Shown: positions 12,709 through 40,547, numbered from the stretch's first letter. The stretch: DNA of 57,516 nucleotides from Candidatus Bathyarchaeia archaeon (GCA_035626195.1 DASPOC010000113.1:1-57516), one strand, 5' to 3'. Notes: generated by a model from the sequence alone, not told the origin. Translations and numbers: made by a program.

Positions 12709-12857
12709 TTTCGAATCGTAGATTTAATTGTGCGATTTATAACTGTTCGTTCTCGCCGATGACCTTTGTTGACGCGGCCGCCTCGTAGCTGCTATCCTCG
12801 ACTAAATGCTGTGCATAGTCCGGTCATAAAGACGCCATTTGATGTTGCACAATGGGT

Positions 12858-21315: not shown

Positions 21316-22452
21316 ATGAAGTCAAGAATCGCACTCCTCGGCTCACGCGGGATACCAGCCAAATACGGTGGGTTTGAGACGTTCACGGAGCGCGTGGCTC
21401 CGGCGCTCGCCGCTGAAGGCCGCGAGGTGTGGGTGAGCTGCGAGGGCACGGCTCGGCCGCGCCCTTCCGAGTACAAAGGGGTTAAGCTGTTTTACTTTCC
21501 ACTCAAGCCCTTCAGGCGCGTTTTCTACGAGACTATATATGATATCTATTCTCTCCTGCGCGCGAGCCTGACGTGCGATTGCGTGATCATGCTGGGCTAC
21601 GGCGCCGGGTTCTTCTTCTTTATTCCGAAGCTTTTCAGAAAAAAAATCGCGGTGAACGTGGACGGCAGGGAGTGGACGCGCGAGAAGTACAATGCCCTCG
21701 AAAAGACTGCGCTTCACGTCAACGAGCTATTTGCGCTACGCTACGCCGATGCGACGATCGCCGACGCGCGGGGAATCCAGGCGTACCTCGAAGCATCGCG
21801 GGCGAGAGGAGCGACCTTTATCCCGTACGGCGTCGACGTGTTCGCAAGTGTCCAATGGGATCCGTCCCGGCTTAGGGCGCTGCCCGGCGACCTCGACCAT
21901 TTGGAGATCGGCGAGTACTTTCTGATCGTTGCGCGTCTTGAGCGCGACAACAACATCACAACGATGATCGAGGGCTTCTTGGCCGCGCGTACCGACAAGA
22001 AGCTGGTCATCGTCGGGAACTTCTCGGATTCGAGTTATGAGCGCGGCAGTCACGCACTTATTGTAGAGCACCGAGGCCAGGATCGAGTCACGTTTAGCGG
22101 GGGAATCTACGAAAAGGACCTTTTGACCATGTTACGCCAACATTGTTTTGCCTATCTCCACGGGCACTCAGCGGGAGGCACCAATCCCTCGCTGCTCGAG
22201 GCGATGATCGCTCGTAACCTCATCATTGCCCACGACAACCCGTACAACCGGGAGGTGTGCGACCGCTTTGCCTTGTTCTTTAACGACCGGGTGAGCCTGC
22301 GCACCTTGATCGAATCAGTTGTTGACCAGCCAGAAGCGTACGACACGCTTCGAGACGGCGCGTTTGACCGGGCGAAAAACGAGTACGCGTGGGATCGCGT
22401 CTTGCGCGAATACGAAGCACTGCTTGACGACGTACTGCGATGCGGGAAATGA
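21316..22452 (+). CDS. GT-B glycosyltransferase with a DUF1972-type N-terminal domain
   Basis: IALLGSRGIPAKYGGFETFTERVAPAL is the DUF1972 signature as I recall it. C-terminal part GHSAGGTNPSLLEAM. Confidence 0.85.
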   Translation: MKSRIALLGSRGIPAKYGGFETFTERVAPALAAEGREVWVSCEGTARPRPSEYKGVKLFYFPLKPFRRVFYETIYDIYSLLRASLTCDCVIMLGYGAGFFFFIPKLFRKKIAVNVDGREWTREKYNALEKTALHVNELFALRYADATIADARGIQAYLEASRARGATFIPYGVDVFASVQWDPSRLRALPGDLDHLEIGEYFLIVARLERDNNITTMIEGFLAARTDKKLVIVGNFSDSSYERGSHALIVEHRGQDRVTFSGGIYEKDLLTMLRQHCFAYLHGHSAGGTNPSLLEAMIARNLIIAHDNPYNREVCDRFALFFNDRVSLRTLIESVVDQPEAYDTLRDGAFDRAKNEYAWDRVLREYEALLDDVLRCGK

Positions 22453-23567
22453 AGCTGCTCTTCGTCAACTACATGGAAACGACCGCTGCTGGCGGAATCA
22501 ACACGGTTGTGCGAGAGGTGGGGGGTGCACTCGCGCACCAGGGACACGAGGTCACGGTGCTTCAGCCTAATCTTCATCACCGCGCGTCGGAAGAGCTCTG
22601 CCAGGGTTTTAGAATCCGGCGGGTGCGTGCGCCGCTGAGTGGCCTCCTGTATGGGTTTGACATCCGGCTGCGGAGGGACATGGCCGTGCTATACAGCACG
22701 TTCACGCCCGATGTGGTTCACGTGCATGGCTTTCACTCGCTATTTTCGGCTGAGGCCGTGTACTGTGTGAGGCGGATCGCCGCCGACGTCCCACTCGTCT
22801 TCTCGTACCACTTGGACGTATATCGCGAGCGGTTCTTTGCCAGACGGCTTTGGAATGCGTACAAACAGGTCGGAAAGAATATGCTGGGCGCGCTCACGCA
22901 CGTCATCGCATTTTCTCAGTTCGAAGCTGACACGATCGGCCGCGAGTTTCACGTGCCGCGCGAGGGTATGTCTCTGATACCGCACGGCGTACCGGTCATC
23001 GATACGCGCAAAACGCGTGCGCAGGGAGTCGGCCCGCGTCTCCTGTACGTCGGTCACCTGTTGAAGCGAAAGAACGTGCAAGCGATCGTGGAAAGTTTGG
23101 ATGTGCTAGTGCACCGGGAAAAGGTGCCAGACGCATCGCTGACGATCGTTGGCGCGGGCCCTGAGCGGGCACACATCAGCCGTTTGATTCGCGACCGGGG
23201 GTTGGAAGCGCACGTGACGCAGAAACCGTTTTTGGCGCCAGCAGACCTCTTTTGTGAGATGAAACGCGCCGATCTGCTCCTACTGCTGTCAAACTCAGAA
23301 GCGTACGGCATCGTCGTTGCAGAAGCGCTCGCGCTGGGTACGCCGTGTATCGTGGCGGATGCGACTGCGCTGCACGAATTCATCGTGGAGCCCGGCTGTT
23401 TTGGAGTTGCGTACCCCCCCGACCCCGAAGAGGTCGCCCCGCTCATCACGGAGGTCTTTAAAAGCACGGCGCAGGTGGGGCCGTTCAGCGGCAAGATACG
23501 TACGTGGGAGGAGGTTGGTCGCGCCTACGAACGTCTGTACTGTCGGTGCGCCGAGGGCGATTCGTGA
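22440..23567 (+). CDS. GT4-family glycosyltransferase
   Basis: GGINTVVREVGGALAHQGHEVTVL...LLLSNSEAYGIVVAEALALGTPCIVAD. An alternative start at 22449 would give an ATGA overlap with the upstream stop. Confidence 0.85.
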   Translation: MREMKLLFVNYMETTAAGGINTVVREVGGALAHQGHEVTVLQPNLHHRASEELCQGFRIRRVRAPLSGLLYGFDIRLRRDMAVLYSTFTPDVVHVHGFHSLFSAEAVYCVRRIAADVPLVFSYHLDVYRERFFARRLWNAYKQVGKNMLGALTHVIAFSQFEADTIGREFHVPREGMSLIPHGVPVIDTRKTRAQGVGPRLLYVGHLLKRKNVQAIVESLDVLVHREKVPDASLTIVGAGPERAHISRLIRDRGLEAHVTQKPFLAPADLFCEMKRADLLLLLSNSEAYGIVVAEALALGTPCIVADATALHEFIVEPGCFGVAYPPDPEEVAPLITEVFKSTAQVGPFSGKIRTWEEVGRAYERLYCRCAEGDS

Positions 23568-23666: not shown

Positions 23667-24785
23667 TCACTTGCTGCGGTTCCCTCTGGTTGCGACGAAC
23701 CAAGCGATAGCGAGCAGGTAAGCGATCCCAACACCGCCCAAGAGCCACAGCAGATATGGCGTCAGGGCACCGCTCACGTCTATCAGGCTTACAGCAGCGC
23801 CGTAGATAGCTGCTGTACTGACCGTGACCTGAGGGAGGCTTAAAGCGGCTCCAGGGGCGGCTCCTGTAATCACCACCTGACGATCGAGGCGAGTGAACTG
23901 CACGCCTTCCTTGCTTTTTACGTAATCAATATAGTCACGCAAAAGCTGCACCTTGCGCGGGTCGGCCGAGCCTCCGGGTCCGCTGAAAGTCCACCAATGG
24001 TACGCGACAATCAACGTATCGTTGGAGGGGTCGCTGAAAAACTGGTCGGTCGTGTTTTTTGCGAACTGAAAGCTCGTGGCGAGGGCGGTGTAGTTCGAGC
24101 CGACGATATTGGTGGTGGCCGGTTCCACCCGTATTCCGTATGCTTGGCCTTGCAGTGTCGTGAGGTCCCCGCGCCCCGAACAATAGTCCGTAAATCCGAG
24201 CGCTCCTAATGCCGCTAGCGTGTTGCTATCGCCGTGGTCGAAGGGGGGAACGAAGGTGGTTGGTGTTATCCCGAACGCGTCCCTGATATCGTCACGCCCC
24301 TTTTGTATGGCTTCGTACTGTACTTGAAAGGGCTCGCCATAGAACTCGCTGGGCTCGCTGGGGCTCAAGAAATGATCATCCTTGTGCGAGTATCCGTGCT
24401 GCGCGAACTCAAACAGAGGGTTCGAGCTGATCGACCGCATGTACGTGAGAAACGCAGGATCTTGGAATAGTTTGTTGTCCGGGCTTGTGCCAAGGATTGG
24501 CGGAACGCCCAGTGTGAGTTGGCTATTCGAGAGTAGGAATACTTGGCTGTCGGGTCCTGTGGCGTTAGGATCCGGAACGATTGCCAGCGTCACGGGCACG
24601 TTTTCTTCGACGTGCACATGATTCACAGCTTGCAGCGTATCTCCGTGACACCACCCCGGCGCGACGTCATCGTCACGAAAGATGACGTACTTTTTCACGC
24701 CGACCGTTTGTGCATTGACGGGCGCTGTGGAAAACAAAACCGCTAGAACGAGTAGCGAGGCGAAAAAGATCGTGCGTTTTTTCAT
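23667..24785 (-). CDS. Secreted, C-terminally membrane-anchored polysaccharide deacetylase-like protein (paralogue of 18217..19416)
   Basis: Signal peptide MKKRTIFFASLLVLAVLFSTAPVNAQ. Motifs VIFRDDDV, VPVTLAIVPD, NPLFEFAQHGYSH and TFVPPFDHGDSNTL. C-terminal TM plus basic tail LLWLLGGVGIAYLLAIAWFVATRGNRSK. Confidence 0.85.
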   Translation of the reverse strand: MKKRTIFFASLLVLAVLFSTAPVNAQTVGVKKYVIFRDDDVAPGWCHGDTLQAVNHVHVEENVPVTLAIVPDPNATGPDSQVFLLSNSQLTLGVPPILGTSPDNKLFQDPAFLTYMRSISSNPLFEFAQHGYSHKDDHFLSPSEPSEFYGEPFQVQYEAIQKGRDDIRDAFGITPTTFVPPFDHGDSNTLAALGALGFTDYCSGRGDLTTLQGQAYGIRVEPATTNIVGSNYTALATSFQFAKNTTDQFFSDPSNDTLIVAYHWWTFSGPGGSADPRKVQLLRDYIDYVKSKEGVQFTRLDRQVVITGAAPGAALSLPQVTVSTAAIYGAAVSLIDVSGALTPYLLWLLGGVGIAYLLAIAWFVATRGNRSK

Positions 24786-25886
24786 TGATCCTCATTGCGG
24801 CGCGTGCTGTTCGGTGCACTCTCTTACCCTTGTTTACTGTTCCACTGAGTCTGGCAATAAAGCTTTTTCCGGCGGAGCATCCTGCGTAGTTAATAATCTC
24901 TCCTTCCGGCCCGGCGATCAGGTCCTCGTCGCATTCAGGAACCGTAAGTTGCTTCGAGCGGTTATCAGCTACCTACTCATAAGAAGCTATTTGTGCATAA
25001 ACCCTTTTCCTTTTCAACGTCATAGTTACGGTTTTTCGAGGTGCCCTTGTTGTAATCGTTAAACTATCATCGGAATCCGAGGGTCCTTCGCGCAATGATC
25101 TATTTCGAAGCTTTCATCGACGAGGTGGACGCGAATTATCTTGGATAAGAAAATCGGTTTCTTCATCGTCTATCGGCAGGGTACGGAGGCGACGTTCTAT
25201 AGGCAATCGCTGGCTTTAGAACGCCCCGATCTCGCAGTTAATTGGGCCGTAACCGGTTCACTCGAAGGCACGTAATCCCTGGTTGGACTGCACTGATTGG
25301 GGCCTCCTCGGAGTCTCGCCGCTTTCGGTGCTCGCAGCAGCGATAACTATAGAAAGAGGGCAAAAAATACGCGCGCTACTAAGACTTTTGCCAGCCATAT
25401 CCGCTCTATTAGCCGAGTAGTGACGATGTATCCTTCGATTTACGTAACCTTGGTGAAGATCCGTAGTCTCGCTTCAAGATCTTCCTAGACTGCAGCTTTT
25501 TGTCGATCTGGCACTATCATGCACGGCTTTCGCGAGGTTACAAGAAACAGTCGTGTTGACCCTCGGATCAGTTTCCCTCTCTTCAATCCTTCTTCTAAAG
25601 CTGCACCGCCTTTTAAAGGTTGGGAGTATCCGTCGAGAGGGGTTCGCTGCAGACTCATTCGCGCCATGATCCGTTTCACAAGCGCGCTCTAATGGAGTGC
25701 ATTGTTGGAACAAATGAATGCATACACATGTGAAACTTCTTACTACACTCATTAAGAAACTAGATATAGAGTATGAACGAACAACTGAATCGCGAAGCGC
25801 GCTCGTACGGCTCTCTATCCCTTCGCGGGCAATGAAATCGCTCGCCTGAAAACGTATTCACGAAGAGGGCCACCGATGTCGTATCC

Positions 25887-28190
25887 ATGAAACTCAACAA
25901 TCCACTCGAAGCAAACGACTGGGGCATCGCTACGTTCTTCAAGCTCATCGCGTCGCTTCAGATATCTGTCTGGATAGTTTTAGCTCTAGACGCCGTCGGT
26001 GTGCACGTGCCGATTCTAAGAGGGGGGCTGGTGCTCGTTTATCTACTCTTCGTGCCCGGGATCATTCTCTTGCGAGTTCTCAGGTTGCACGAGCTCAACG
26101 TCATTGAAGGTTTTTTTTACACGGTGGGCTTAAGCGTAGCAACGATTATGCTCACGGGCCTCTTTATGAACACCCTTTATGTTTTTGGCATTACGTCGAC
26201 GCCGCTCACACTCGCTCCGTTCATCGCCACAATGAGCGGGGTTGTCCTGGCGCTTTGTATGCTAAGCTATCGTCGCGACCGGGATTATTCTCGTTCGACG
26301 ACGATCGACGCGCGTGTAGTCCTTTCGCCAGTGACACTCGGTTTGTTGCTACTGCCATTCATGGGCGTCTTTGGGGCGTACCTCTTCAACACACTTAGCA
26401 CGAGCATCGGAACCGTTCTCGTGCTGCTCGCTGTCACCGCCGTGATTTTCGTATGTGGCTTTACTGGTTACGTGCCGAAACGCTACTACTCTCTCGCGAT
26501 TGTGGCGATCGCCTTGGCGCTGCTGCTCCATAACGCGCTGATTACGAACTATCTGTGGGGATTCGATATCCAAATCGAAAACTTCGTAGCGCAGAGTGTC
26601 GTCAGCAACGGTTTCTGGGGGAGCGCTCCGAACCTCAATTACAACACATTGAATCTCAATTCAATGCTGAGCATTGCTATGCTCGCTCCGCTGCTCTCTA
26701 TCTCGACCGGTATCAGCGTGACGTGGGTCCTGAAGCTCATTTTTCCGCTGCTTTTCGCTATGGTGCCTCTCGGTCTCTATAGGCTGTACGAAAAACAAAC
26801 ATCCCCTCGCATTGCTTTGTTCGGCGTATTTTTTTTTATGGTGACTTTTTCGTTTTATACCGAGCTCCTTACCATGGCACGCCAGGAAATCGCGGAATTC
26901 TTTTTCGTGGCGCTGCTGTTGCTGCTCGTAGACAAACAGATGCGTAGGATGCCGCGGTTCTCTCTCTTCGGCATATTTGGCTTCTCGTTGATCGTCTCGC
27001 ACTACGCATTGACGTACGTCTTTCTATTCTGTTTCATTCTCGCGTGGCTCATGCTTTTGGTGGTGGGGAGCTTCGACGTGCGAGCGCTAACACAGCGGAT
27101 CTCCCGCAAAGGAGATGCGGACCGCTCTGTACCGCCGTTTCGTCGGCCGCATCGACTGCGCAACGGCATTAGTGCGGTTTTCGTTGTCGGCTTCACGCTC
27201 ATCGCGGCCCTTTGGTACCGCTTCGCGAATAACTCACAACCGTTTGACTCGTTTGCGCGCATAGTCGCAACGACCCTCTTGTACCTCGGAATGCCGGGAC
27301 TCTACGCGCAACTTAACGGGGCAAGCAACCTCTCTGATATACCACTCCCCTCCATTGCCTCACGCGCGAACGGCGGGCTCGATACTACAGGACTCCAATC
27401 AATTCTCGCGTCCAAGCTTCCGTTGCACCAGGTCACTGAATATCTCATCCTCATCGCACTCATCATGGCTTTCGTGGGGCTTCTTTTCGCCTTGAAAGAG
27501 CGATCAAGGCTTAAATTTTCGAATGAGTACCTAGCGTTTTCTGCTGCTATGTTGGTCGTTCTCTACCTCTGTCTCGTGCAGCCCCTCTTTGCGGCGAGTC
27601 TAAACCTCTCGCGGTTCGTGCAAATATCGCAGCTAGTGCTGAGCGTGTTTCTCGTCGTCGGCTTTGCTGGGGTTTTCAGCGTTGTTAAGAAGCGAGGCGC
27701 GAATTTTGCTTCACAAGGAACGATATCCCCCCCCTTTAAGGCCTTGGCGTGTTTTATGGTCGTATTGTTTCTCTTTAACGCAGGCCTCGTGTACAAGGTG
27801 GCTGGAGAACTCAATGATAGCCCTACTGTCATGGCGTTAGACACGAGCGTCGACTTTGGAAAGTTCAATACGCAAGAAATGATCGCCGCGAAGTGGATAG
27901 GTGGAAACGCTTCTGGTGGCATCATCGCCGCCGATGATTTCCGATACTATGCTGTCTACACGTTTGACCCCGGTCAGGCGACCATGCTTCCCAGCGGCGG
28001 CTCTTGGGCGGATCTCGCACCTGGATCGTACATCTATCTCGGCACCCCCAACGTGCAAACGGGGAAACTCGTCGTCGGCTTGAACACCCTAACCAATCTG
28101 CCTATGGAACTGGACGCGCGCTATTATGTGGGTGGCAGCAGCAACATCTATTCTAACGGTTATGCTCAAGTCTATCGCGTGAATGGGTAA
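25887..28190 (+). CDS. DUF2206-type polytopic membrane protein (function unknown; candidate GT-C-like enzyme)
   Basis: 767 aa with many hydrophobic segments and a ~130-aa non-hydrophobic C-terminus. Shares motifs with 31978..34332: LLFVPG..LR.LRLH.L, WGFDIQ, ARQEIAEFF and SHYAL. Confidence 0.8.
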   Translation: MKLNNPLEANDWGIATFFKLIASLQISVWIVLALDAVGVHVPILRGGLVLVYLLFVPGIILLRVLRLHELNVIEGFFYTVGLSVATIMLTGLFMNTLYVFGITSTPLTLAPFIATMSGVVLALCMLSYRRDRDYSRSTTIDARVVLSPVTLGLLLLPFMGVFGAYLFNTLSTSIGTVLVLLAVTAVIFVCGFTGYVPKRYYSLAIVAIALALLLHNALITNYLWGFDIQIENFVAQSVVSNGFWGSAPNLNYNTLNLNSMLSIAMLAPLLSISTGISVTWVLKLIFPLLFAMVPLGLYRLYEKQTSPRIALFGVFFFMVTFSFYTELLTMARQEIAEFFFVALLLLLVDKQMRRMPRFSLFGIFGFSLIVSHYALTYVFLFCFILAWLMLLVVGSFDVRALTQRISRKGDADRSVPPFRRPHRLRNGISAVFVVGFTLIAALWYRFANNSQPFDSFARIVATTLLYLGMPGLYAQLNGASNLSDIPLPSIASRANGGLDTTGLQSILASKLPLHQVTEYLILIALIMAFVGLLFALKERSRLKFSNEYLAFSAAMLVVLYLCLVQPLFAASLNLSRFVQISQLVLSVFLVVGFAGVFSVVKKRGANFASQGTISPPFKALACFMVVLFLFNAGLVYKVAGELNDSPTVMALDTSVDFGKFNTQEMIAAKWIGGNASGGIIAADDFRYYAVYTFDPGQATMLPSGGSWADLAPGSYIYLGTPNVQTGKLVVGLNTLTNLPMELDARYYVGGSSNIYSNGYAQVYRVNG

Positions 28191-28347
28191 TCGGCCGCAA
28201 ACGCCGTTTTCCTGCTGCAGCGAGGCCCTATGAATAGGAGATTTTCTTTGAGAGGGCATAATCGGTGGGAGCTTCATAGGTTAATTCCTCTCAAGCAACC
28301 GATAAGGCGGGGTTGCAGAGCCGCATAGCAGCCGCCGTCTGAAACTA

Positions 28348-28851
28348 ATGAGCCTTTTCAAGCCGCGTTTGATCGCATTTGCGGCGCAAGCAAACATTTA
28401 TGAGCAAAGTTGTCCGAATCAGAGCCGCGTGAATCGTAACATCGCCCTTACCGTGGTTCTTGCCATCGTCTTGGTCCTCGCGATATGTGGAACGATACTG
28501 ATCGTGGTGCTCCCCCAGCCAGGCGAGCCGTTCACCGAGCTGTTCCTTCTGGGCCCCGGTGGGACGGCGAGCGACTACCCGACCAATCTGACCGCCGGCC
28601 AGACGGGCAACGTGACCGTTGGCGTCATCAATCACGAGAACGCGGACGCTAACTACACACTGGTGGTCAGACTCGACAACGCGACTGTCGCTACGCACGC
28701 ATTTAGCCTGGCGAACGATGAGCAGTGGGAACACTCCGTGTCGTTTACGCCGACGCACAGCGGCATGGGGCAAAAGCTGGAGTTCGCCTTATATAAGGGC
28801 AGCGACCCGAGCGTGTACCGCTCGGTGTACCTCTATCTCACCGTGACGTGA
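28348..28851 (+). CDS. DUF1616-like single-TM protein
   Basis: One TM segment (IALTVVLAIVLVLAICGTILIVVL), then PFTELFLLGPGGTASDYPTNLTAGQTGNVTVGVINHENADANYTLVV, which is the DUF1616 pattern as I recall it. It is shorter than typical family members. Confidence 0.65.
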   Translation: MSLFKPRLIAFAAQANIYEQSCPNQSRVNRNIALTVVLAIVLVLAICGTILIVVLPQPGEPFTELFLLGPGGTASDYPTNLTAGQTGNVTVGVINHENADANYTLVVRLDNATVATHAFSLANDEQWEHSVSFTPTHSGMGQKLEFALYKGSDPSVYRSVYLYLTVT

Positions 28852-28866
28852 GTTCGAGAAGCTCGC

Positions 28867-28872
28867 TTTTTT
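28867..28872 (+). terminator. Oligo-T tract, possible archaeal intrinsic terminator
   Basis: gctcgcTTTTTTgcg lies 16 nt after the stop of 28348..28851. Confidence 0.35.
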
Positions 28873-29068
28873 GCGTGCGCTCGCGTAGGCAGGCGTTGAT
28901 TGCTGATTTCGTTCCTAGCAGCTGTGATTCCGCTCTCAACCAGCGTGTAAGCGACACGTGGTAGATGGTTGTAGGTCCAACCAGCTCGCTGCAGCGCGCT
29001 CACACAGCGGTACGAGCCACAAACCCTGCAGCAAATTCATATAGGTGCACCGCAGTCATTGGTGATGA

Positions 29069-30055
<987 letters not shown>

Positions 30056-30118
30056 GGGTTTAGCGCTAACTCTTCTCTTAACGGCACGCGCGATCTCTGT
30101 TGAATACGTCGAAGCCCA

Positions 30119-31303
30119 ATGCGGCTCACCGATGGCCGAGCATCCAAAATGAGGGTGACGCTGATTAGAGGGCGGGGGATAGAGCCGAGCATCAACAAAA
30201 TAGCGAGAGCGCTGGCAACGCACGGCTATTCGGTCAAGCTGCTGATTTGGGATCGCGATGGCGTTGCCGAGTCGTACAATGCGGCGCTGTATCGCACGTA
30301 CAAGTGTAGGATCAGGGCTACATACGATCGACCGGCGGCGCTGCTGTATCTGCCGCTCTGGTGGGCATATGAGCTCGTGTTCCTTCTGCGAGACGACAGC
30401 GATGTCATACATGCGAGCGACTTAGACACGCTACTCCCAGCCATAATCGCCAAACTCATCAGGAAGCGAAAGCTCTGCTATTTCATCTACGACTTCTATG
30501 CAGATAATCTGCCCGACGGGGGATTTCAGAGACTGAGACAGCGCATTAGGCGTTTTGTCGCGCGCCTTGAACGCACAGGAATCGGCTTCGCTGACGTGCT
30601 TTTTTTGGTGGATGAGTCGCGCTTTGAAGAGGTCGACGGTGCACATATTAACAAGCTCTATTACGTGTGCAACTCTCCGATTGACTACCTGACGATGCCC
30701 CGCGCGATGGCGGCAGGAACCGCATCGAGGGTGTCGGCTGACGAGATGGTCATATTCTATGCGGGGGCGATGCACGGCTCTCGCGGACTCAACTACATGT
30801 TCGACGCGGTGAGCGGTGTCGAAGGCGTGCGGCTCAAAATGGCCGGGCCGATCACCGACAATGATCGGGTTCTCGACGAGATGGACCGTATCGGGAAAAA
30901 GGCGCAGTATCTAGGGTTCTTGCCCTCGTATGACGACGTCATTAGGGAGACGCTGAAGGCGGATCTTTTGTTCCGGTTTGAAGATCCTAGGGTTCCCAAG
31001 ACGAAGTATGCGAGCCCCGCTAAACTGTTTGAAGCGATGATGTGTGGTAAGCCAATCATTGTGAGCGACGGGAGTGCAATGGCGAACATCGTTCGAAAGG
31101 AGCGGTGCGGGGCGGTGGTGGCGTACGGCGACGTGCCCGCGCTCATTGACGCGCTGAAAACGTGCAGGGAGGACCCGCAGCTCCGAGCCGAGCTAGGCAA
31201 CAACGGGCGTAAGGCGTATGAAGAACGTTACAGCTGGGCGATTATGGAGGAACGTCTGCTTAGCGGCTACCGCTCTCTTGACCAGCTCGCGCGCGCAGTT
31301 TGA
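30119..31303 (+). CDS. GT4-family glycosyltransferase
   Basis: MRVTLIRGRGIEPSINKIARALATHGYSV (likely start at 30149), then ...KYASPAKLFEAMMCGKPIIVSDGSAMANIV. Confidence 0.85.
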   Translation: MRLTDGRASKMRVTLIRGRGIEPSINKIARALATHGYSVKLLIWDRDGVAESYNAALYRTYKCRIRATYDRPAALLYLPLWWAYELVFLLRDDSDVIHASDLDTLLPAIIAKLIRKRKLCYFIYDFYADNLPDGGFQRLRQRIRRFVARLERTGIGFADVLFLVDESRFEEVDGAHINKLYYVCNSPIDYLTMPRAMAAGTASRVSADEMVIFYAGAMHGSRGLNYMFDAVSGVEGVRLKMAGPITDNDRVLDEMDRIGKKAQYLGFLPSYDDVIRETLKADLLFRFEDPRVPKTKYASPAKLFEAMMCGKPIIVSDGSAMANIVRKERCGAVVAYGDVPALIDALKTCREDPQLRAELGNNGRKAYEERYSWAIMEERLLSGYRSLDQLARAV

Positions 31304-31975
31304 GGATTCTCGTGATTGTCGTAGACAGACTATCCACGTCGGCCTCTCGTAGCCGAAGAATGGGGCACAGGAGAGGTACGCCAATCTGGCGAGACAGCTC
31401 CTCGTCAGAGACAACAGCGTCATCTTGCTCCATGTCGCGGAGTTCGTCGATCCTCACGACGCGTCGCCCGCTACGATTTACTCGTAACGCGATCTCGAGT
31501 TTACTGGTCGGACTGCGCGTTTTTTGCCACCTAGCACCTCCACCACGCATGATCAACTCAAACGTCTTGTTTTTGGTGGGCGGCGCCGGCGCGCCGACAT
31601 TTGAGCGAGAGAATGTGCACTCCGTCGGCTTCACGGAGGACTTGCCGCGTTTTTTCGCGGTAGGGGATATCGGAACTTGCCTAAAGACGCTGGAAGCGAA
31701 ACGCGGCTAAAGCTCTTTCAATGCACGAATGGGGGGTTTCCATCGTAACCACTGAAAAAGGTATTGAGGGCATATCAGCACACAACGGGGAATACGGCCT
31801 CTTCCTCCGGCGGGTCGACGCGCGGTTGGTTGATGAAGTGGCGTACCTTCTTGAAAATGAATTCGAACGAGCACAGTTTGGTGCCAACGCACGAAAGCTG
31901 CTTGAAGCGAAGCACACGCTGGATACCAGCGGCGCGCTATTTTTCGCCGTACACCAGCGCGTACTGGAGGGCCTT
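31300..31975 (+). pseudogene. Decayed GT4 glycosyltransferase (multiple frameshifts, probably internally deleted)
   Basis: A TTG start overlaps the upstream stop (TTGA) and gives MRILVIVVDRL. GAQERYANLARQLLVRDNSVILLHV is in a second frame. VLFLVGGAGAPTFERENVHSVGFTEDLPRFFAVGD and HEWGVSIVTTEKGIEGISAHNGEYGLFLRRVDARLVDEVAYLLENEFERAQFGANARKLLE lie in two frames. Confidence 0.6.
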
Positions 31976-31977
31976 CC

Positions 31978-34332
31978 ATGGTTCTTAATCCTCTCGTGAT
32001 GAACGATTGGCCGCGCAAACGGACGCTCACAACGGTCCTCGGCCTGCAGTTTCTTGTCTGGGCCCTTATCGGACTCGACGCGGCAGGGGTGCAGATACTG
32101 CTTTTGCGGGCCCTGTTTGCCTTTGCGTACCTCTTGTTCGTTCCCGGTATGCTCGTCCTTCGGGCCCTCCGCCTACACAAGCTCGGCGGCGTGCGCACGC
32201 CGCTCTTCGCTGTTGGCCTGAGCCTCGCGGCAGTCATGGCGATAGGACTTCTTATGACAATGTTGTATCCGGTGTTTGGGTTCGAGCGGCCGCTCGCGCT
32301 TGTCCCGGTCGTGATGACGGAAGGCGTCATCATCACCTTCCTGGCCGTACTGAGCTATTGGCGCGATCCGGGTCCAACTGATGGCGGTACCATCGATCGA
32401 CGTGACGTACTATCGCCGCCGGTGTTAGCGCTTTGTGTGCTCCCCTTTGTGAGCATATTTGCAACGTACGCGATGAACGCGTACGGTAGCAACCTGCTCC
32501 TGCTCGCGCTCATCATCATAATCGCGATCACGGCGCTTTGGATCAGCACATCGGCATCCGTTCCAAAGGAGCTTTATCCGCTCGCGGTATTCGTCATCGC
32601 ACTCGCTCTCCTGTATCACGCATCGCTGATATCGCCTTACGTCTGGGGGTGGGACATCCAGAAGGAGCTCTATAGCGCTAACGCTGTCCTTACCAACGCG
32701 CAGTGGAGTGTGCACGCGCCTGGCGCAACCAATGCTGTGCTGAGCGTTACCCTGCTCGCTCCGATTACATCAATTGTGTCAGGCGTGAGTGTGGTGTGGA
32801 TCTTCAAAACGATCTATCCCCTATTGTTCGCTCTCGTCCCCGTCGGCCTGTTCGTCGTTTTTCAAAAACAGACGAGCGACAGAATTGCCTTCTTAGCCTC
32901 CCTCTTTGTCACCTTTTTGTTCACGTTCTTCACCGAAATGCCGTCACTCGCGCGACAGGAAATCGCTGAGCTTTTTCTTGTGCTGCTCCTAATGTTGCTG
33001 GTCGACAAACGCGTCGGCTCCGAGGCAGGGAAACCGCTCCTCTATACGATCTGCGCCATATTTGCGGCATCCGTTGTTGTGTCGCACTATGCACTCGCGC
33101 TCATCTTTATCACATATCTCGTCGTCGCGTGGCTCATGCTCTTCCTCGTCGACAACCCCGCCATGCGCCGCCTGCAAAGGGCCGCCTCGTCTGGGCCGTC
33201 AGCAAAGCCTTCCTCTCGCCCGAAAAGGATGCTGACGCTGCCCTTCATCGTGTCGTTCGCCGCCTTCACGGCCGCATGGTACGTGACTCTCGGGTCCGCG
33301 GCGCTGAGCGGTGACATCGCCCCTATATTCGCCCAGATTGGCCGCACGCTTTTCACGCCTTCTAACGTCGCCCTCGCCCTCGGGATCGGCGCTGCGGTGT
33401 ACGCCTGCGCCCTTGTGATCGTCTACGTGCTCGCCAAAAGAGCCCAGCGGAAGCCGTCGACGCTGCTGTTCGGGGTGCCGGTCGTCTCTCTCTCGGCATC
33501 ACTTGCGCTGGCGCGCTATTACGGGGTTTCGGCAAATCAACTGCTCCAGGCCGCGACGCTCTCGCCGCTCCACGAGGTGGCGGAACTCCTCTACTTACTC
33601 GGCTTCATTCTCATCATTTTGGGCCTCGCTGCGCTTGCGCTCCGCCGTTGCCGTTTCACGTTTGATCAAGAGTTTGCTGCGCTCGCGCTCGCGAGCTTTG
33701 TCATATTAATGACAGCCGCCGCCATACCGCTTTTGGCCCTCACCGTCAATACTACGAGGCTCTATCAGATCTCAACGCTCTTACTGGCCCCCTTTTGCGT
33801 TACCGGAGCGCTGCTGATTGGGTGGGTTCCTGGGCTCCTGCCCGCGAGACAGCGTGAAAAGACAGGCGTGAGCCTCGCTTACAAGCTCGTCGCAGTGCTC
33901 TTTGTCGTAATGTTGCTGTTTGGCACTGGACTCGTTTATGAGGTCACGCGGCAGGATCCGACCTCATTCTTCTTAAATGATGCCATCGATGCTCCCCGTT
34001 TCAACGCGAGAGAGGTGGCTGGGGCTCAGTGGCTCTACGCGGTGAAAGCATCCGCGCGGCCCGTGTATGCCGACCTGTATCGCGGCCTTCTCTGGACCAG
34101 TCTTGATTCTAATCATTCGCTCGTACGCCTCCCCAGTCACGCGCCGCACACGCCACTCGCGGGGTATGTCTATCTGGGGACTTTCAATTTGCTCACGGGG
34201 ACGAGCGCGCAGCAGGTAAATGCACGGTCACTCCTGAGCGGCACACAGACAAGCCACTCGAGTTTGGTCGGTATCGCGGACGGCCGCAATCGTGTTTTTG
34301 ACGACGGGGGCGCCGTCGTATTTTACCACTAG
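31978..34332 (+). CDS. DUF2206-type polytopic membrane protein (paralogue of 25887..28190)
   Basis: 784 aa with the same motif set: LLFVPGMLVLRALRLHKL, WGWDIQKE, ARQEIAELF and SHYAL. Confidence 0.8.
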   Translation: MVLNPLVMNDWPRKRTLTTVLGLQFLVWALIGLDAAGVQILLLRALFAFAYLLFVPGMLVLRALRLHKLGGVRTPLFAVGLSLAAVMAIGLLMTMLYPVFGFERPLALVPVVMTEGVIITFLAVLSYWRDPGPTDGGTIDRRDVLSPPVLALCVLPFVSIFATYAMNAYGSNLLLLALIIIIAITALWISTSASVPKELYPLAVFVIALALLYHASLISPYVWGWDIQKELYSANAVLTNAQWSVHAPGATNAVLSVTLLAPITSIVSGVSVVWIFKTIYPLLFALVPVGLFVVFQKQTSDRIAFLASLFVTFLFTFFTEMPSLARQEIAELFLVLLLMLLVDKRVGSEAGKPLLYTICAIFAASVVVSHYALALIFITYLVVAWLMLFLVDNPAMRRLQRAASSGPSAKPSSRPKRMLTLPFIVSFAAFTAAWYVTLGSAALSGDIAPIFAQIGRTLFTPSNVALALGIGAAVYACALVIVYVLAKRAQRKPSTLLFGVPVVSLSASLALARYYGVSANQLLQAATLSPLHEVAELLYLLGFILIILGLAALALRRCRFTFDQEFAALALASFVILMTAAAIPLLALTVNTTRLYQISTLLLAPFCVTGALLIGWVPGLLPARQREKTGVSLAYKLVAVLFVVMLLFGTGLVYEVTRQDPTSFFLNDAIDAPRFNAREVAGAQWLYAVKASARPVYADLYRGLLWTSLDSNHSLVRLPSHAPHTPLAGYVYLGTFNLLTGTSAQQVNARSLLSGTQTSHSSLVGIADGRNRVFDDGGAVVFYH

Positions 34333-34466
34333 CGAAGGTCACGCGCTCGCTCCTGGTGTCCTTCCCGGGGCTACGGATGTCGCGGCACCCCGCTGAAGTC
34401 GGCGCCAGTAGCGATCCGAAGAACGCGCTGCTGCCCGTTCGAGCAACGTAGAGGCAATGTTAGCGT

Positions 34467-34655
34467 CTCGCGCGGTGTTGGAGCAACAGGCGCACCGAGG
34501 ATGAGGCTGGGTTCTTTTTTTGCGCAAACGGCAACCAGAGCAGCGTCAGTAATGGTATCTATCTATAACGAAGCGCACCCAAAGAAAATGGGAGAGTGTG
34601 CGCGTCTGCGCGTCGCAAGAACTACAGCGATGCCTTTAAAACCGACTTCGGCGGC
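34467..34655 (+). repeat. Copy A of a ~190-nt duplicated intergenic module (T-run, TATA-like box, conserved leader, first ~25 nt of a GT2 CDS)
   Basis: Aligns by eye with 37206..37399. The 31-nt core at 34572-34602 is identical to 37314-37344. T7 run at 34515-34521. A relic ATG at 34630 opens only a 33-codon ORF (MPLKPTSAAA...). Confidence 0.85.
34561..34568 (+). promoter_or_regulatory. TATA-like box (atctataa) in duplicated module copy A
   Basis: Positional homologue of atttataa at 37303-37310. Confidence 0.35.
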
Positions 34656-35247
34656 GGCGCTAATAATCAACATAAAGGTCGCCAAAAGTCCTGGTGCGGT
34701 CACTAAGTGGGACCCACTTTTGGCGAACTAGTCGACGATTACGAGGGGTGTACGCAAACCTTGTAGACGCAAGCGAGTGGGCTAAACGTACAGTCTGCTA
34801 CAAATAACCGAAAACATCTGCGCATGCCGCGTTTCGCTATCAGCTAAGACATTCGAAGCACGATAATCCTCTTTTTGGGTTGTATAGACAAGTCGAAACG
34901 GATAAAGCTTCCCATCGCTCTTTCGCTTTCTTAAAAACGCTCTGATCCGTCATTGGTGCTCGAGGACCAGCACGAGGCGATGAAGAGATCCAATGTGGCT
35001 ATTTAACAGATTTATCTAAAACTATGAAGGCGACTGGAAAATGCCCCGCGTAACGCGCGAATGGTAAGGGCTGGCAAGCGAAACGTCAGACTCACGGTTG
35101 CATTGAAGGTGGAACAGCTTTATAGTCGATGCGTGTCGAAATAGGTTGTGTAGGGCGAGCTACCCTTGCTGCTCCACTCGGTGACGAGAATGAGTCCTTA
35201 CACAGGCGCATCCTGCGGCCAATACGCGACTGTGACTAGAGTCTGCA

Positions 35248-36477
35248 ATGAACATCCTAATGATATGGGAAGAGCGTCCATCACCGTACAGCGGAACGGC
35301 CCTACCGGCATTCAACGTCTTAAAGCACTTAAGCAGAAGTCACACTATTCGGCTTTTGTATCTCAACAATGATCTCGCCGCGCCGAGATCCTATCCGGAA
35401 CTGGAACGGTACTGTTCACAAATCGATTCAGTGTCCTGGCATCCTCAATCGCACAGTAATAAACTTCTTTCTGTTGCTCGCGACAGCTGTGCCCCGCGAA
35501 AACTCTTTTCGGACTATCGGTGTTTCTTGACGACCGCGTACTTGCCAGCGATGGCATCATTGATACAAGACGTTCGTCACGACAAGTACGACATCGTTTA
35601 TGCGAGCGAACCGGTCGCGTTCTACGCGTGGCGATTTAGCACCCCAAAAGTGATGCACGCATTCGATTGCAGGTCTGCCGAGTTCTACCGAGAGTACCTG
35701 AGAGCGCGCAGGTCTATGGACAAGCTTTATTGGTTCTGCACGTATCTCGCTACTAGATCGGCGGAGAAAAAGCTCCTTACTGCGTTTGATGCAACCATTG
35801 TCGTCAACGACAGGGAATATCACGCAATGAAAATGCTGTGCCCCGAAGCAAAGTGCGCAGCCGTTCCTAATGGGGTCGATACGGACTTCTTCAAGCCGCT
35901 GGGGATAAGCGAAGAATGGCCCTCATTGGTCTTCGTCGGCTACATGTCCAGTCTTCCAAACATCGATGCGATAAAGTATTTTCATTCTCAGGTTTACGAC
36001 ACGCTCAAGCGGCGATTTCCAAACCTGAAGCTATTCGTGGTCGGTCAAAATCCGCCTCCTGCCATTCGCGCCCTCGCCAAGGACCCGTCAATTTGCGTGA
36101 CGGGATTCGTGGAGGACGTGCGTCCGTATGTTGCCCGTGCTTCAGTTGCAATCGCTCCTTTCGTATCGGGAATGGGAATAAAAAACAAGGTCTTGGAGGC
36201 GATGGCTATGGGAAAGCCTGTGGTCACTACCTCAATCGGTGTACGAGGGATTAACGCTACACCCGACGCCCAACTTTGTATCGCGGACAGTCCTGTCGAA
36301 TTTGCCGATCAGGTGGAAGGACTGTTGCTCGACAAGGCCAAACAGCAACGAATCGGGCGCCAGGCGCGCGAATTTGTGAAGAAGTACCATTCTTGGGCAC
36401 GCGTAACCGACAAAATAGATGCAATCTTTCACGAAGTGCAAATAGGTGACGTTTGCTGTGCAACCCGTTACTTTTAA
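35248..36477 (+). CDS. GT4-family glycosyltransferase (N-terminus resembles the exosortase-associated EpsH1-type sugar transferase subfamily)
   Basis: MNILMIWEERPSPYSGTALPAFNVLKHLSRSHTIRLLYL...VAIAPFVSGMGIKNKVLEAMAMGKPVVTTSIGVRGI. The subfamily call is from memory only. Confidence 0.85.
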   Translation: MNILMIWEERPSPYSGTALPAFNVLKHLSRSHTIRLLYLNNDLAAPRSYPELERYCSQIDSVSWHPQSHSNKLLSVARDSCAPRKLFSDYRCFLTTAYLPAMASLIQDVRHDKYDIVYASEPVAFYAWRFSTPKVMHAFDCRSAEFYREYLRARRSMDKLYWFCTYLATRSAEKKLLTAFDATIVVNDREYHAMKMLCPEAKCAAVPNGVDTDFFKPLGISEEWPSLVFVGYMSSLPNIDAIKYFHSQVYDTLKRRFPNLKLFVVGQNPPPAIRALAKDPSICVTGFVEDVRPYVARASVAIAPFVSGMGIKNKVLEAMAMGKPVVTTSIGVRGINATPDAQLCIADSPVEFADQVEGLLLDKAKQQRIGRQAREFVKKYHSWARVTDKIDAIFHEVQIGDVCCATRYF

Positions 36478-36700
36478 TGATTGGGAACTAAAAAAACAAT
36501 ATTTGTCCCCGCGGTTCTTCAGGTGTGTTTCTGGGGAGTGCTGGCCTTGAATTCTTCGGGCCGCCCTTTTCATCCAGCATTCGACTGAGTGCATTTTTTC
36601 TGCTTTTTATTGCGGGCATTCTCCGCAGCCATATGTCGAAAAAACTACTTTACGGTCTGTTGCGTGCCTAGTCAGAGATTTGCTTCAGGGAGGTGAAAAA

Positions 36701-36946
36701 ATGGCGCGCCAACACAACCAACGAACCGCAAACACAGCAACCGATGCAGCAACCGATGCAGAGAAGTCAGATGGAGGGAGAAGTCTACACATTAGATATT
36801 TGCAAGAAATATACGTGCACACTATGGGATCGGATCAGAGCCCGTTGACTGAATACACTTTCAGTCCGAAAGAGTTGAGCGCGATTGCGCGTCCTGAAGA
36901 TCCACAGCCTCGGTCTTTAGTTAACCTCCATACGCCGTCGGCTTGA
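36701..36946 (+). CDS. Small hypothetical protein (81 aa)
   Basis: ATG at 36701 is preceded by a strong Shine-Dalgarno-like ggaggtga (36688-36695). I recognise no homology. Contains a 2 x 12-nt repeat gcaaccgatgca. Confidence 0.4.
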   Translation: MARQHNQRTANTATDAATDAEKSDGGRSLHIRYLQEIYVHTMGSDQSPLTEYTFSPKELSAIARPEDPQPRSLVNLHTPSA

Positions 36947-37205
36947 GTATCGCAACGCTGACTTTAGCCGATTTTTAATTAATAAGGCGTATGCACACCT
37001 CCGTTTCACGCGACCGATAGCTTCCCTATTTTATTGATAACGCGTAGCGCCGAAGTGGATATCCGGTGTTTAGCAGCTATCGTCAGAGACCAGGACCTTT
37101 TCAGGCGCTGACTCGCTTGAATTTCGAGCGGTTGCATCGCTACTCCCCTCGCTCTGTGCCCGATCCCATTTGTTGGCATCTTTGAGACCTACGCGATGAA
37201 CGGCA

Positions 37206-37399
37206 CTCTGCGCGGTGCGAAGCAACAGGCGCGCCGAGGATCAGCTGGGGTCTTTTTTTGTTGCGTAATGGCAGGAAGAGAGCAGAGTCAGGTCATGTAT
37301 CTATTTATAACAGAGCGCACCCAAAGAAAATGGGAGAGTGTGCGGCCTTGTACGTCGCATGAACCACAACGATGCCCTTTCAAAACGAATTCGACGGCG
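37206..37399 (+). repeat. Copy B of the duplicated module, here functional as the 5' region of GT2 gene 37372..38343
   Basis: See copy A. T7 run at 37253-37259, TATA-like box at 37303-37310, core at 37314-37344, ATG at 37372. Confidence 0.85.
37303..37310 (+). promoter_or_regulatory. TATA-like box (atttataa) upstream of the GT2 gene
   Basis: Lies 62-69 nt upstream of ATG 37372, implying a ~40-nt leader if transcription starts ~25 nt downstream of the box. Confidence 0.45.
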
Positions 37400-38343
37400 C
37401 GACACAGCCTGCTAATCGTGCGACCGGCGCTGCTATGCGGGCGACCAACGCACACGGCAGCATGGTGGCGATCCCCGCATACAATGAAGAGCTTACCATA
37501 GGCAGCGTTGTCGCCCGAGCACGGCGCCACGCTGACCGAGTCGTTGTCGTCGACGACGGCTCTGATGATGCTACTGCGTACGTTGCTGAGCTGGTCGGCG
37601 CCGAGGTCTTCCGGCACCTCACGAACGAGGGGTACGGCAGTGCCATACGCGATTGTTTTGAGATAGCACGAGACTGCGACGTCGACGTGCTCGTAACGCT
37701 CGACGGGGACGGACAACACAATCCCGATGACATCCCGCAGCTTATCGACGAGATGAGAGAAAGCGGCGCCGATGTCGTGATTGGCTCACGCTTTGCGCGC
37801 GGGGTGAAAAACCGGACGATTCCTCGCTACCGGAAACTTGGGATGAAGATACTGGATCGCGCAACAATGCTGAGCTCAGGGCTCAGGTTGACCGATTCGC
37901 AAAGCGGGTTTCGCGCATACTCGCGGAAGGCGCTTCACGCGATCGACGTGAATCAGAATGGTATGGGTGTGAGCTCTGAGATCATCATCAGGGCCGCCGA
38001 TAGCAAGCTCAAAATCAGAGAAGCGGGAATTGTGACCCGTTATGACGGTATTCGCGATTCGAGCAAGGGCCCCGTGCGTCACGGACTCGATGTCATCAAC
38101 TCGATCGTTCGCGTGGTCGCGCAAAAACACCCGATCTTATTCTTCGGCGTTCCGGGGCTTTTCTTTTTAGGGGCGGGGGTAATCCTGTTTCTTCATGCGC
38201 TTGACGTGTTCAATCGCACCAACAACTTGATCACTATCTATATGCTGGGGTGGCTCTTCTGTGCCGCCGTGGGTCTTTATGGGCTGCTTGCAGCACTCTT
38301 GCTGTGGTCCGTCCAGGATATCAACGCGCGGGCCACAAGGTAG
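37372..38343 (+). CDS. GT2 polyprenyl(dolichyl)-phosphate hexose synthase-like glycosyltransferase (paralogue of 20108..21079)
   Basis: VAIPAYNEE...VVVVDDGSDDATA...DGDGQHNPDDIPQLI...TDSQSGFRAY, followed by two C-terminal TM helices. Confidence 0.85.
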   Translation: MPFQNEFDGATQPANRATGAAMRATNAHGSMVAIPAYNEELTIGSVVARARRHADRVVVVDDGSDDATAYVAELVGAEVFRHLTNEGYGSAIRDCFEIARDCDVDVLVTLDGDGQHNPDDIPQLIDEMRESGADVVIGSRFARGVKNRTIPRYRKLGMKILDRATMLSSGLRLTDSQSGFRAYSRKALHAIDVNQNGMGVSSEIIIRAADSKLKIREAGIVTRYDGIRDSSKGPVRHGLDVINSIVRVVAQKHPILFFGVPGLFFLGAGVILFLHALDVFNRTNNLITIYMLGWLFCAAVGLYGLLAALLLWSVQDINARATR

Positions 38344-39477: not shown

Positions 39478-39710
39478 CAACCTCCTTGCTCTGCGCACTC
39501 TGTGTACCCTGGCACGGGCGCTGTGAGACGACGGCGTGGCCGCCATTTAGCGCCGTTTCACAACGTGACGTTGCTTTGCCCCGCTAAGGAGGTTTCGGCG
39601 GCTCGACCTCGCCCATCCGACCGCCATGTGTCTCCTACGGCTGACCGAGACTATATTTAGAGCTATTGACCTGGGAGATACAATGCTGTCACTGCGAGGG
39701 TGAGGCGCGG

Positions 39711-40471: not shown

Positions 40472-40547
40472 TTCCCTGCAGCAGTATCAAAGACGCCGTG
40501 CACACAGTACCGCAAACGCAGGACGTTGCACAAGTCGATCCCGAAAA

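Follow-up and report, generated by a model that had tools for sequence, protein, structure and literature searches.

DUF2206 membrane proteins of an archaeal glycan island have a predicted GT-C fold and are candidate outer-face glycosyltransferases

We analysed a 57,516-nucleotide stretch of DNA from Candidatus Bathyarchaeia archaeon (GCA_035626195.1 DASPOC010000113.1:1-57516), hereafter called the window, in which the region of ~2.4-39.5 kb is devoted almost entirely to glycan biosynthesis. Two large membrane proteins of this island, P1 and P2, belong to the DUF2206 family. It is highly probable that they are GT-C glycosyltransferases that use a lipid-phosphate-linked donor on the outer face of the membrane. 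The whole explanation, in which such enzymes draw on dolichyl-phosphate (Dol-P)-linked monosaccharides in this island, is one to which we give a probability of about 0.5. From the fold, topology, motif conservation and gene neighbourhoods described here, we infer the catalysis, the donor, the acceptor and the pairing of the synthase-like GT2 enzymes with the DUF2206 proteins. The two open reading frames (ORFs) are as follows.

25887..28190, + strand: P1, DUF2206 paralogue of 767 aa, predicted GT-C-fold membrane glycosyltransferase (Pfam PF09971, AlphaFold2, Foldseek)
31978..34332, + strand: P2, DUF2206 paralogue of 784 aa (Pfam PF09971, 35% identity to P1)

BLASTP aligns the two proteins over their full length at 35% identity (E 6e-117), and both match PF09971 far above its gathering cut-off of 35.6 bits (P1, 161.6 bits, E 3e-47; P2, 166.7 bits, E 9e-49). 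Hydropathy and AlphaFold2 (AF2) secondary structure give ~17 transmembrane (TM) helices and then a mixed alpha/beta C-terminal domain of ~128 aa, and the motifs LLFVPG..LR.LRLH, WG[FW]DIQ, ARQEIAE[FL]F and SHYAL are found in P1 and P2 alike. The original prediction, read from the sequence alone, had described two hydrophobic paralogues of ~770 aa at these positions with the same four motifs and a ~130-aa C-terminal domain, and we find it accurate in all these respects. Its DUF2206 label also stands, with an addition that it had omitted: the PF09971 model spans the C-terminal half only (P1 residues 360-763). The N-terminal half of P1, which holds LLFVPG, WGxDIQ and ARQEIAE, matched no Pfam model even at E 10. 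Searching the PDB chains by sequence, with P1 alone or with the family profile, gave no meaningful match. P1 and P2 carry no STT3 signature (no STT3 Pfam match, no PDB sequence match and no WWDYG/WWD motif), and we therefore do not count DUF2206 as a member of GT66.

The structural comparison gave a clear assignment. The full-length AF2 model of P1, based on an alignment of 55 sequences (predicted local distance difference test score, pLDDT, 83.5; predicted TM-score, pTM, 0.87), was searched against the PDB by Foldseek. All 15 best matches were GT-C enzymes at a probability of 0.87-1.00, with AftA on top (E 5.7e-6), accompanied by human and yeast STT3, PglB, ArnT, AglB and ALG9. Below these matches the probability was at most 0.15, and transporters stood at a TM-score of ~0.1. 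As the first helix of P1 is not followed by a long outside loop, we modelled residues 195-767 separately (pLDDT 81.7). All 24 best matches of this second model were again GT-C enzymes, now at a probability of 1.00, with DPY19, AftD and Pmt4 newly included and AftB also among the matches. Removing residues 1-194 improved the E-values of the oligosaccharyltransferase (OST), ArnT and ALG9 matches by 1-3 orders of magnitude, that of STT3A going from 1.3e-5 to 3.3e-8. The TM-scores of the matches, normalised to the target (TMt), rose from 0.44 to 0.48 for ArnT, from 0.37 to 0.45 for ALG9 and from 0.44 to 0.47 for yeast STT3; AftA (0.42 to 0.39) and, slightly, 6s7o (0.46 to 0.44) were the exceptions. 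Because dropping residues 1-194 betters most matches, we place the GT-C core in TM7-17 plus the C-terminal domain. Judged by these models, P1 has the helical architecture of GT-C enzymes and not a transporter fold. The original prediction had proposed this very comparison and had named a transporter fold as the outcome that would speak against it; GT-C structures were what the models matched.

The same helical-bundle architecture could also belong to a protein that is no glycosyltransferase, whether it works as a transporter or exporter or serves the envelope-glycan machinery as a non-catalytic scaffold; such a protein would sit well with TM-scores below 0.5 and with the lack of any match of P1 or P2 to a curated GT-C sequence model. 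We regard this as very improbable. All 15 and all 24 best structural matches are GT-C enzymes, with transporters left at a probability of 0.15 or less and a TM-score of ~0.1; the invariant D, E, K, R and H residues are predicted to cluster on the outer face, as they do in GT-C active sites; and DUF2206 genes lie consistently inside glycan-biosynthesis clusters.

The part of P1 that lies in front of the core is the following.

25887..26468, + strand: six-helix N-terminal module of P1, residues 1-194 (TM1-6), delimited by Foldseek with and without the module and by residue conservation

On the strength of the models, TM1-6 are a family-specific N-terminal addition outside the GT-C-matching core. 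Archaea and actinobacteria share the conserved module residues P57, G81, N95, P106, G163 and N168. A 567-aa DUF2206 protein of Natronococcus (L079:11881-13584; L numbers denote the loci of our survey) appears to lack most of the module, and tblastn upstream of its gene found no trace of it. The weak PMT_2 and DUF6541 labels of actinobacterial members may be a faint link by sequence to a curated GT-C family: a Kitasatospora relative has sub-threshold matches to PMT_2 (17.9 bits) and DUF6541 (28.8 bits), and two actinobacterial DUF2206 proteins carry a precomputed PF13231 PMT_2 label.

We then assigned the loops from the AF2 helices and averaged lysine plus arginine (K+R) over 144 family members. 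The mean K+R was 21.1 for the predicted cytoplasmic loops versus 3.2 for the predicted outside loops, and this concentration in the cytoplasmic loops supports an N-in, C-out topology. The segments of interest in this topology are listed below.

26538..26666, + strand: first long extracytoplasmic loop of P1, residues 218-260, resembling extracytoplasmic loop 1 (EL1) (AF2, K+R, conservation)
26556..26579, + strand: WGFD227IQIE231 of P1 (motif position)
32644..32667, + strand: WGWD226IQKE230 of P2 (motif position)
27804..28187, + strand: C-terminal extracytoplasmic alpha/beta domain of P1, ~residues 640-767 (AF2 secondary structure)

The GT-C-matching core begins with TM7, and the loop 218-260 comes after this helix. 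The loop has little K+R (0.63 per 38 residues) and, in the AF2 model, contains two short helices (226-241 and 252-258), which resemble the EL1 juxtamembrane helices of known GT-C enzymes. The motif G225-x-D227-I-Q-x-E231 sits at the N-terminus of the first of them. D227 and E231 are conserved in 99% of 144 archaeal representatives, which are 29-36% identical to P1, and in 100% of 50 actinobacterial members. In the same two sets, K283, R332, H372 (in S-H-Y) and R576 are conserved to 99-100%; W244, W443, W670 and D683 are conserved too. The C-terminal domain holds three conserved residues, W670, D683 and Y755, and carries a mean of 1.8 N-glycosylation sequons across family members. In the assigned topology, R332, H372 and R576 are predicted to lie at the outer membrane interface. 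An invariant acidic pair together with basic residues on the outer face would have the look of a GT-C active site that handles a lipid-phosphate donor. The search for a conserved acidic residue in the first extracytoplasmic loop, as suggested in the original prediction, ended on D227 and E231, in the first long loop of the GT-C core.

The donor question leads to the genes that accompany P1 and P2. Those which bear on it are listed here.

20108..21079, + strand: GT2a, DPM1/AglJ-like polyprenyl-phosphate glycosyltransferase (two C-terminal TM helices; best PDB match 5mlz, E 1.2e-13)
37372..38343, + strand: GT2b, DPM1/AglJ/PpgS-like polyprenyl-phosphate glycosyltransferase (two C-terminal TM helices; best PDB match 5mlz, E 8.5e-18)
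29093..30055, + strand: gmd, GDP-mannose 4,6-dehydratase (TIGR01472, 419.1 bits versus a cut-off of 415)
18217..19416, + strand: DUF2334 polysaccharide-deacetylase-like protein (PF10096, E 3e-11)
23667..24785, - strand: DUF2334/polysaccharide-deacetylase-like protein with N-terminal hydrophobic segments (PF10096, E 1e-14; Polysacc_deac_1, E 1.6e-5)
4536..5987, - strand: Wzx-type flippase (MOP superfamily, Polysacc_synt) with 12 TM helices (PF01943, PF13440)

The entry 5mlz is the Dol-P-mannose synthase of P. furiosus, and ArnC is also among the best PDB matches of GT2a and GT2b. In NCBIfam they score best with AglJ, PpgS, haloarchaeal Dol-P hexose transferase and ArnC, in each case under the equivalog cut-off. 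Hydropathy, NCBIfam and PDB matches thus bear out the polyprenyl-phosphate synthase architecture, with two C-terminal TM helices, that had been read from the sequence of these two enzymes. The flippase is a different matter. A TM scan of the window found no small multi-TM (~4-TM) ORF of the GtrA or ArnE/F type, as the original prediction had said; the Wzx-type gene on the opposite strand had been overlooked. Wzx, P1 and P2 are the only polytopic membrane proteins of the island.

In the explanation that we prefer, GT2a and GT2b would make Dol-P-monosaccharides on the cytoplasmic face, one donor perhaps coming from a GDP-6-deoxyhexose via gmd and one perhaps being trimmed by the DUF2334 deacetylase-like proteins. 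A MOP-type rather than a GtrA-type flippase would flip the donors; AglR (PMC3871713) and the GT136 system (PMC11127046) are precedents for MOP/MATE-type flippases in this role. P1 and P2 would then take the sugar from the dolichyl-phosphate donor and hand it to a surface glycan or glycoprotein, through an active site that would face outward and be formed by G-x-D-I-Q-x-E, where the first long outside loop begins, and by K283, R332, H372 and R576. We favour monosaccharide donors because the window has two synthase-like GT2 genes and two DUF2206 genes, because the array of synthase, gmd and DUF2206 is tight in sister loci, because the island encodes deacetylase-like proteins, just as the Arn pathway has ArnD, and because the tandem paralogues recall Emb and Aft. 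Of the earlier proposal that DUF2206 proteins are outer-face transferases or polymerases fed by such synthases, the fold and the acidic motif support the first part; the monosaccharide donor and the synthase link are supported in part only.

Known systems resemble this one in different ways. The STT3/AglB/PglB enzymes (GT66) are the best structural matches of the P1 core (E to 3.3e-8, TMt 0.43-0.47). In both, a polytopic membrane domain at the N-terminus precedes an extracytoplasmic domain at the C-terminus, an acidic residue opens the first long outside loop, and a long flexible outside loop comes later in the membrane domain. Unlike them, P1 and P2 show no sequence similarity to this group, have no WWDYG, and end in a C-terminal domain of only ~128 aa; the P1 core has 11 helices versus 13 and carries the six-helix N-terminal addition, and no known OST partner is encoded among the DUF2206 neighbour genes. 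The mycobacterial AftA, AftD and AftB, which use decaprenyl-phosphate-arabinose donors, include the top match of full-length P1 (AftA, E 5.7e-6) and share with DUF2206 the outer face, the C-terminal outside domain, tandem paralogues in envelope clusters and, presumably, a lipid-phosphate-monosaccharide donor. They differ in having no sequence similarity to it, and the DPM1/AglJ-like GT2 enzymes here contrast with the phosphoribosyl-pyrophosphate (PRPP)-based decaprenyl-phosphate-arabinose (DPA) pathway there.

The ArnC/ArnD/ArnE-F/ArnT, Gtr and GT136 systems likewise combine a GT2 polyprenyl-phosphate synthase bearing C-terminal TM helices with a GT-C transferase. The Arn pathway also has a deacetylase-family enzyme (ArnD there, DUF2334 here), and ArnT is a significant structural match of the 195-767 model (E 3.6e-4, TMt 0.48); the GT136 system has a MATE-family flippase (PMC11127046), where the type here is Wzx/MOP. 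In contrast to Arn and Gtr, the island has many GT4 genes and no small flippase of the small multidrug resistance (SMR)/GtrA type, and an hhalign comparison with E. coli ArnT was negative. Haloferax volcanii provides an archaeal parallel, a surface-glycan cluster with a GT2 synthase, a Wzx-type protein and a polytopic outer-face transferase: AglD is a Dol-P-mannose synthase, AglR a Wzx-like flippase and AglS an outer-face mannosyltransferase that uses Dol-P-mannose (PMC3871713, PMC4973528). AglS is compared by its description only, as distantly PMT-like (PMC4973528), and we found no Haloferax homologue of DUF2206. By sequence models and predicted fold, DUF2206 is best described as a new family in the known GT-C superfamily that belongs to a known type of pathway. 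What sets it apart is the six-helix N-module and, in some clades, the DUF1616 partner.

The family is large. A DUF2206 profile search at E <=1e-3 gave 5267 clusters (50% identity), nearly all of 700-800 aa. Scanning genomes at the species level, we collected 77 DUF2206 loci, 46 of them fully flanked, and 84 DUF2206 genes were clustered. The loci come from Methanoculleus, Methanospirillum, Methanoregulaceae, Methanocella, Methanobacteriaceae, Methanoperedens, ANME-2, Methanosaeta, Archaeoglobales and a few bacterial metagenome-assembled genomes (MAGs). Plasmid and protein searches turned up further members in Halocatena, Halococcus and Natronococcus, and many in Streptomyces, Kitasatospora, Actinoplanes and Streptacidiphilus. 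Haloarchaeal homologues occur only in Halocatena, Halococcus, Natronococcus and one Halobacteriaceae genome; within the sensitivity of our searches, none was found in Haloferax. The close relatives of the island are Halobacteriota archaeon or Methanomicrobia MAGs, several of them from peat or bog samples.

The neighbourhood figures that follow are raw locus counts, uncorrected for shared ancestry and given without a genome-wide background, and ~22 of the loci are from Methanoculleus. AglJ/DPM1-like GT2 enzymes were called by hidden Markov model (HMM) at >=126 bits; the scores are bimodal, generic GT2 enzymes staying at <=59 bits. Such a synthase-like GT2 lies within 10 kb of DUF2206 in 18 of the 77 loci, in 16 of the 46 fully flanked ones and in 7 of 22 clusters (50% identity). 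These genes are also present in the Halocatena, Natronococcus and Kitasatospora clusters and in L007 and L027. The co-occurrence expected in the original prediction therefore extends to distant clades, haloarchaea and Kitasatospora included; it covers only 16 of the 46 fully flanked loci. In the clades of the window itself the arrangement is tight. Arrays of synthase and DUF2206 are found in L023, L066, L041 and L074, of which those in L023 and L066 are compact and run in one direction through AglJ-like GT2, DUF1616, gmd and DUF2206, and the window and its relatives have two or three tandem DUF2206 paralogues. Outside the two clades that hold P1 and P2, DUF1616, gmd and DUF2334 are hardly ever found with DUF2206. 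We had considered a deacetylase association as a trait of the whole family and dropped it, since it is confined to the clades of the window, haloarchaea and Kitasatospora. In Kitasatospora, a plasmid operon (L080, NZ_CP108248.1 537256-546632) encodes in order a DPM1/AglJ-like GT2, a 162-aa hypothetical protein, a polysaccharide deacetylase, a GT4, the DUF2206-like protein, a GT4, Wzx and a GT4. Its gene content mirrors that of the archaeal clusters across domains.

Several points weigh against our preferred explanation. The TM-scores of the GT-C matches are modest (0.33-0.48 over both P1 models). A Pfam scan to E 10 of the N-terminal 360 residues and the C-terminal domains found no GT-C family, and hhalign of the DUF2206 family profile versus the single sequence of E. 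coli ArnT, an uninformative test, gave nothing (probability 0.4%). D227 may be the counterpart of the known GT-C catalytic Asp on the basis of topology, not of a residue-level superposition. Our literature search found 'DUF2206' mentioned nowhere and no biochemistry for any member, in line with the earlier remark that the family is uncharacterised. The gene neighbourhoods belong to this list as well. A GT4 gene stands immediately upstream of 41 of the 84 DUF2206 genes, a Wzx-type flippase is present in 26 of the 46 fully flanked loci, and 30 of these 46 have no AglJ-like GT2 within 10 kb. In Methanoculleus (L019:713-3289 (-) and L068:6-2624 (-)), an AglJ/DPM1-like GT2 is fused to a complete GT4 in a protein of ~860 aa encoded 7 kb from DUF2206, and this fusion suggests that the AglJ-like domain can initiate a Dol-P-oligosaccharide, a role that it fits better than donor synthesis.

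These neighbourhood observations favour an en-bloc pathway, in which the AglJ-like GT2 would initiate on Dol-P, the GT4 enzymes would extend, the Wzx-type protein would flip, and DUF2206 would transfer the whole unit or polymerise it. DUF2206 would then be an AglB-independent oligosaccharyltransferase or ligase with a protein or lipid acceptor, or a functional analogue of Wzy. In Haloferax, AglJ does initiate the glycan on Dol-P. GT4 genes and the Wzx-type flippase are the commonest neighbours of DUF2206 family-wide, and of the 77 loci, 28 have the flippase within 500 bp and 45-46 (at two score cut-offs) have it within 10 kb. DUF2206 also fills the genomic slot of Wzy or WaaL, being the sole unassigned polytopic protein beside Wzx and the cytoplasmic glycosyltransferase genes; no other Wzy-like or WaaL-like polytopic protein is encoded in the DUF2206 loci, and none besides P1 and P2 in the window. 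No further candidate for initiation or polymerisation is encoded in the Kitasatospora operon. Pyruvyl-transferase and beta-helix genes lie near DUF2206 in several clades and, with the deacetylase genes, are typical of repeat-unit exopolysaccharide clusters. STT3 oligosaccharyltransferases are the best matches of the 195-767 model, and an unidentified AglB-independent OST has been reported for haloarchaea (PMC3871713).

Nevertheless, we consider this pathway possible rather than probable, clearly behind donation from Dol-P-monosaccharides. P1 and P2 have neither WWDYG nor an STT3 match among Pfam models or PDB sequences. They match no Wzy_C or O-antigen-polymerase Pfam model, and no WaaL- or Wzy-type structure is among the best 50 Foldseek matches of either P1 model. 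A set of two or three tandem paralogues recalls decorating or elongating GT-C enzymes such as Emb and Aft more than it does a single polymerase, and the compact array of AglJ-like GT2, DUF1616, gmd and DUF2206 contains no GT4. As for the missing OST of H. volcanii, DUF2206 is unsupported in this role, since our searches, within their sensitivity, found no Haloferax homologue. A wider form of the idea, which we hold a little less likely still, would make DUF2206 a second, STT3-independent class of en-bloc transferase or polymerase in methanogens, some haloarchaea and actinomycetes. It would act on Wzx-flipped polyprenyl-monophosphate oligosaccharides, initiated by an AglJ/DPM1-like enzyme rather than by a phosphoglycosyl transferase, and ligate them to the surface or polymerise them, and the N-module and, in some clades, DUF1616 would be parts that handle the carrier lipid or the chain.

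The Aft likeness raises a further alternative, a processive outer-face synthase of the Emb/Aft/Mpt type, which would build or branch a homopolymer or side chains by transferring repeatedly from one Dol-P-monosaccharide instead of adding a single decorating sugar. AftA as the top match of the full-length model, AftD and AftB among the matches of the shorter one, the tandem paralogues and the PpgS-like GT2 enzymes are in keeping with it. However, the OSTs rank equal or higher in Foldseek, and the GT4-rich context implies a heteroglycan assembled in the cytoplasm. We think this alternative improbable, and stay with outer-face transfer from Dol-P-monosaccharides as the preferred explanation.

Directly downstream of P1 lies a small membrane protein.

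28348..28851, + strand: short-form DUF1616 protein (Pfam PF07760, hydropathy)

It matches PF07760 at E 6e-32 (111.6 bits, cut-off 31.6) over model positions 137-298 of 307, and has one TM helix and an outside domain of ~110 aa with four N-X-S/T sequons, so that the single-TM DUF1616-like protein proposed at this place is confirmed. It is without the N-terminal multi-TM part of the long forms, such as the 318-aa full-length match in L023. A sequence search against the PDB gave no significant match for DUF1616. The idea that DUF1616 is an accessory subunit of P1 and P2 draws on adjacency: DUF1616 adjoins DUF2206 only in the two clades of the window and in L067. No fusion or other link was found. 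A protein with a precomputed PF07760 label, P0107, had seemed to be a natural DUF1616-DUF2206 fusion, and we rejected it; BLAST and a purpose-built DUF1616 HMM found no DUF1616 similarity in P0107 or in any other DUF2206 protein. A Haloferax DUF1616 protein is an N-glycoprotein (PMC8241124), which is consistent with an extracellular DUF1616 domain and is silent on function.

The remaining genes of the island are mostly glycosyltransferases.

30119..31303, + strand: GT4 glycosyltransferase (Pfam Glycos_transf_1 and GT4 families)
31304..31977, + strand: GT4 gene remnant (pseudogene), including a 136-aa ORF at 31300..31710 (blastx)
35248..36477, + strand: GT4 glycosyltransferase (Pfam; TIGR03087-like, 240 bits)
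38455..39477, + strand: GT2c, soluble GT2 glycosyltransferase (Pfam Glycos_transf_2; no TM helix)
21316..22452 and 22440..23567, + strand: two GT4 glycosyltransferases (Pfam; Cps2T-like, 220 bits)

Performing blastx with the remnant at 31304..31977, we found fragments in different frames that match the intact 405-413-aa GT4 of L001, L003 and L004. Three gaps of ~0.9-1.1 kb without long ORFs (24786..25886, 34333..35247 and 36478..37371) lie inside the co-directional array; blastx shows DNA or ORF-fragment conservation in close relatives and no clear gene. Behind GT2c, at 39478..40547, a gene of ~270-295 aa that is intact in the same place in L004, L041 and L074 (74-86% identity) is split over two frames in the window, by either a frameshift or an assembly error. 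No Pfam family matches it, and two TM helices lie in its N-terminal piece (39666..39926). On the other strand, 9637..14736 (-) encodes a TagF-like CDP-glycerol glycerophosphotransferase (PF04464, E 1.5e-55), a GT2, a flavin adenine dinucleotide (FAD) oxidoreductase and a nucleotidyl transferase, a hint of a teichoic-acid-like surface polymer containing glycerol phosphate. A VTT/DedA-domain membrane protein is encoded at 44458..44928, 5 kb past the island; the VTT/DedA family is implicated in polyprenyl-phosphate recycling. Outside the window, beta-helix proteins, possibly glycanases or epimerases, adjoin DUF2206 in Halocatena (L078:13533-14846) and Natronococcus (L079:14097-15596), and in Methanoculleus one with CARDB and dockerin (L019:13768-16461) lies just past the Wzx gene that is next to DUF2206.

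The logic of lipid-phosphate-sugar synthase, flippase and GT-C enzyme is already known, and the present assignment is an advance in annotation; it would become a new principle only if the en-bloc pathway were true, which for bacteria would imply a repeat-unit pathway with a monophosphate linkage and no need of Wzy or WaaL. The GT-C assignment and the outward D-x3-E motif together give a concrete catalytic hypothesis, with definable point mutants, for a large unstudied family, and its actinomycete members make the family accessible to experiment. DUF2206 is likely to be the missing outer-face step in many archaeal and actinomycete surface-glycan clusters that have Wzx and cytoplasmic glycosyltransferases and no recognisable polymerase, ligase or decorating enzyme.

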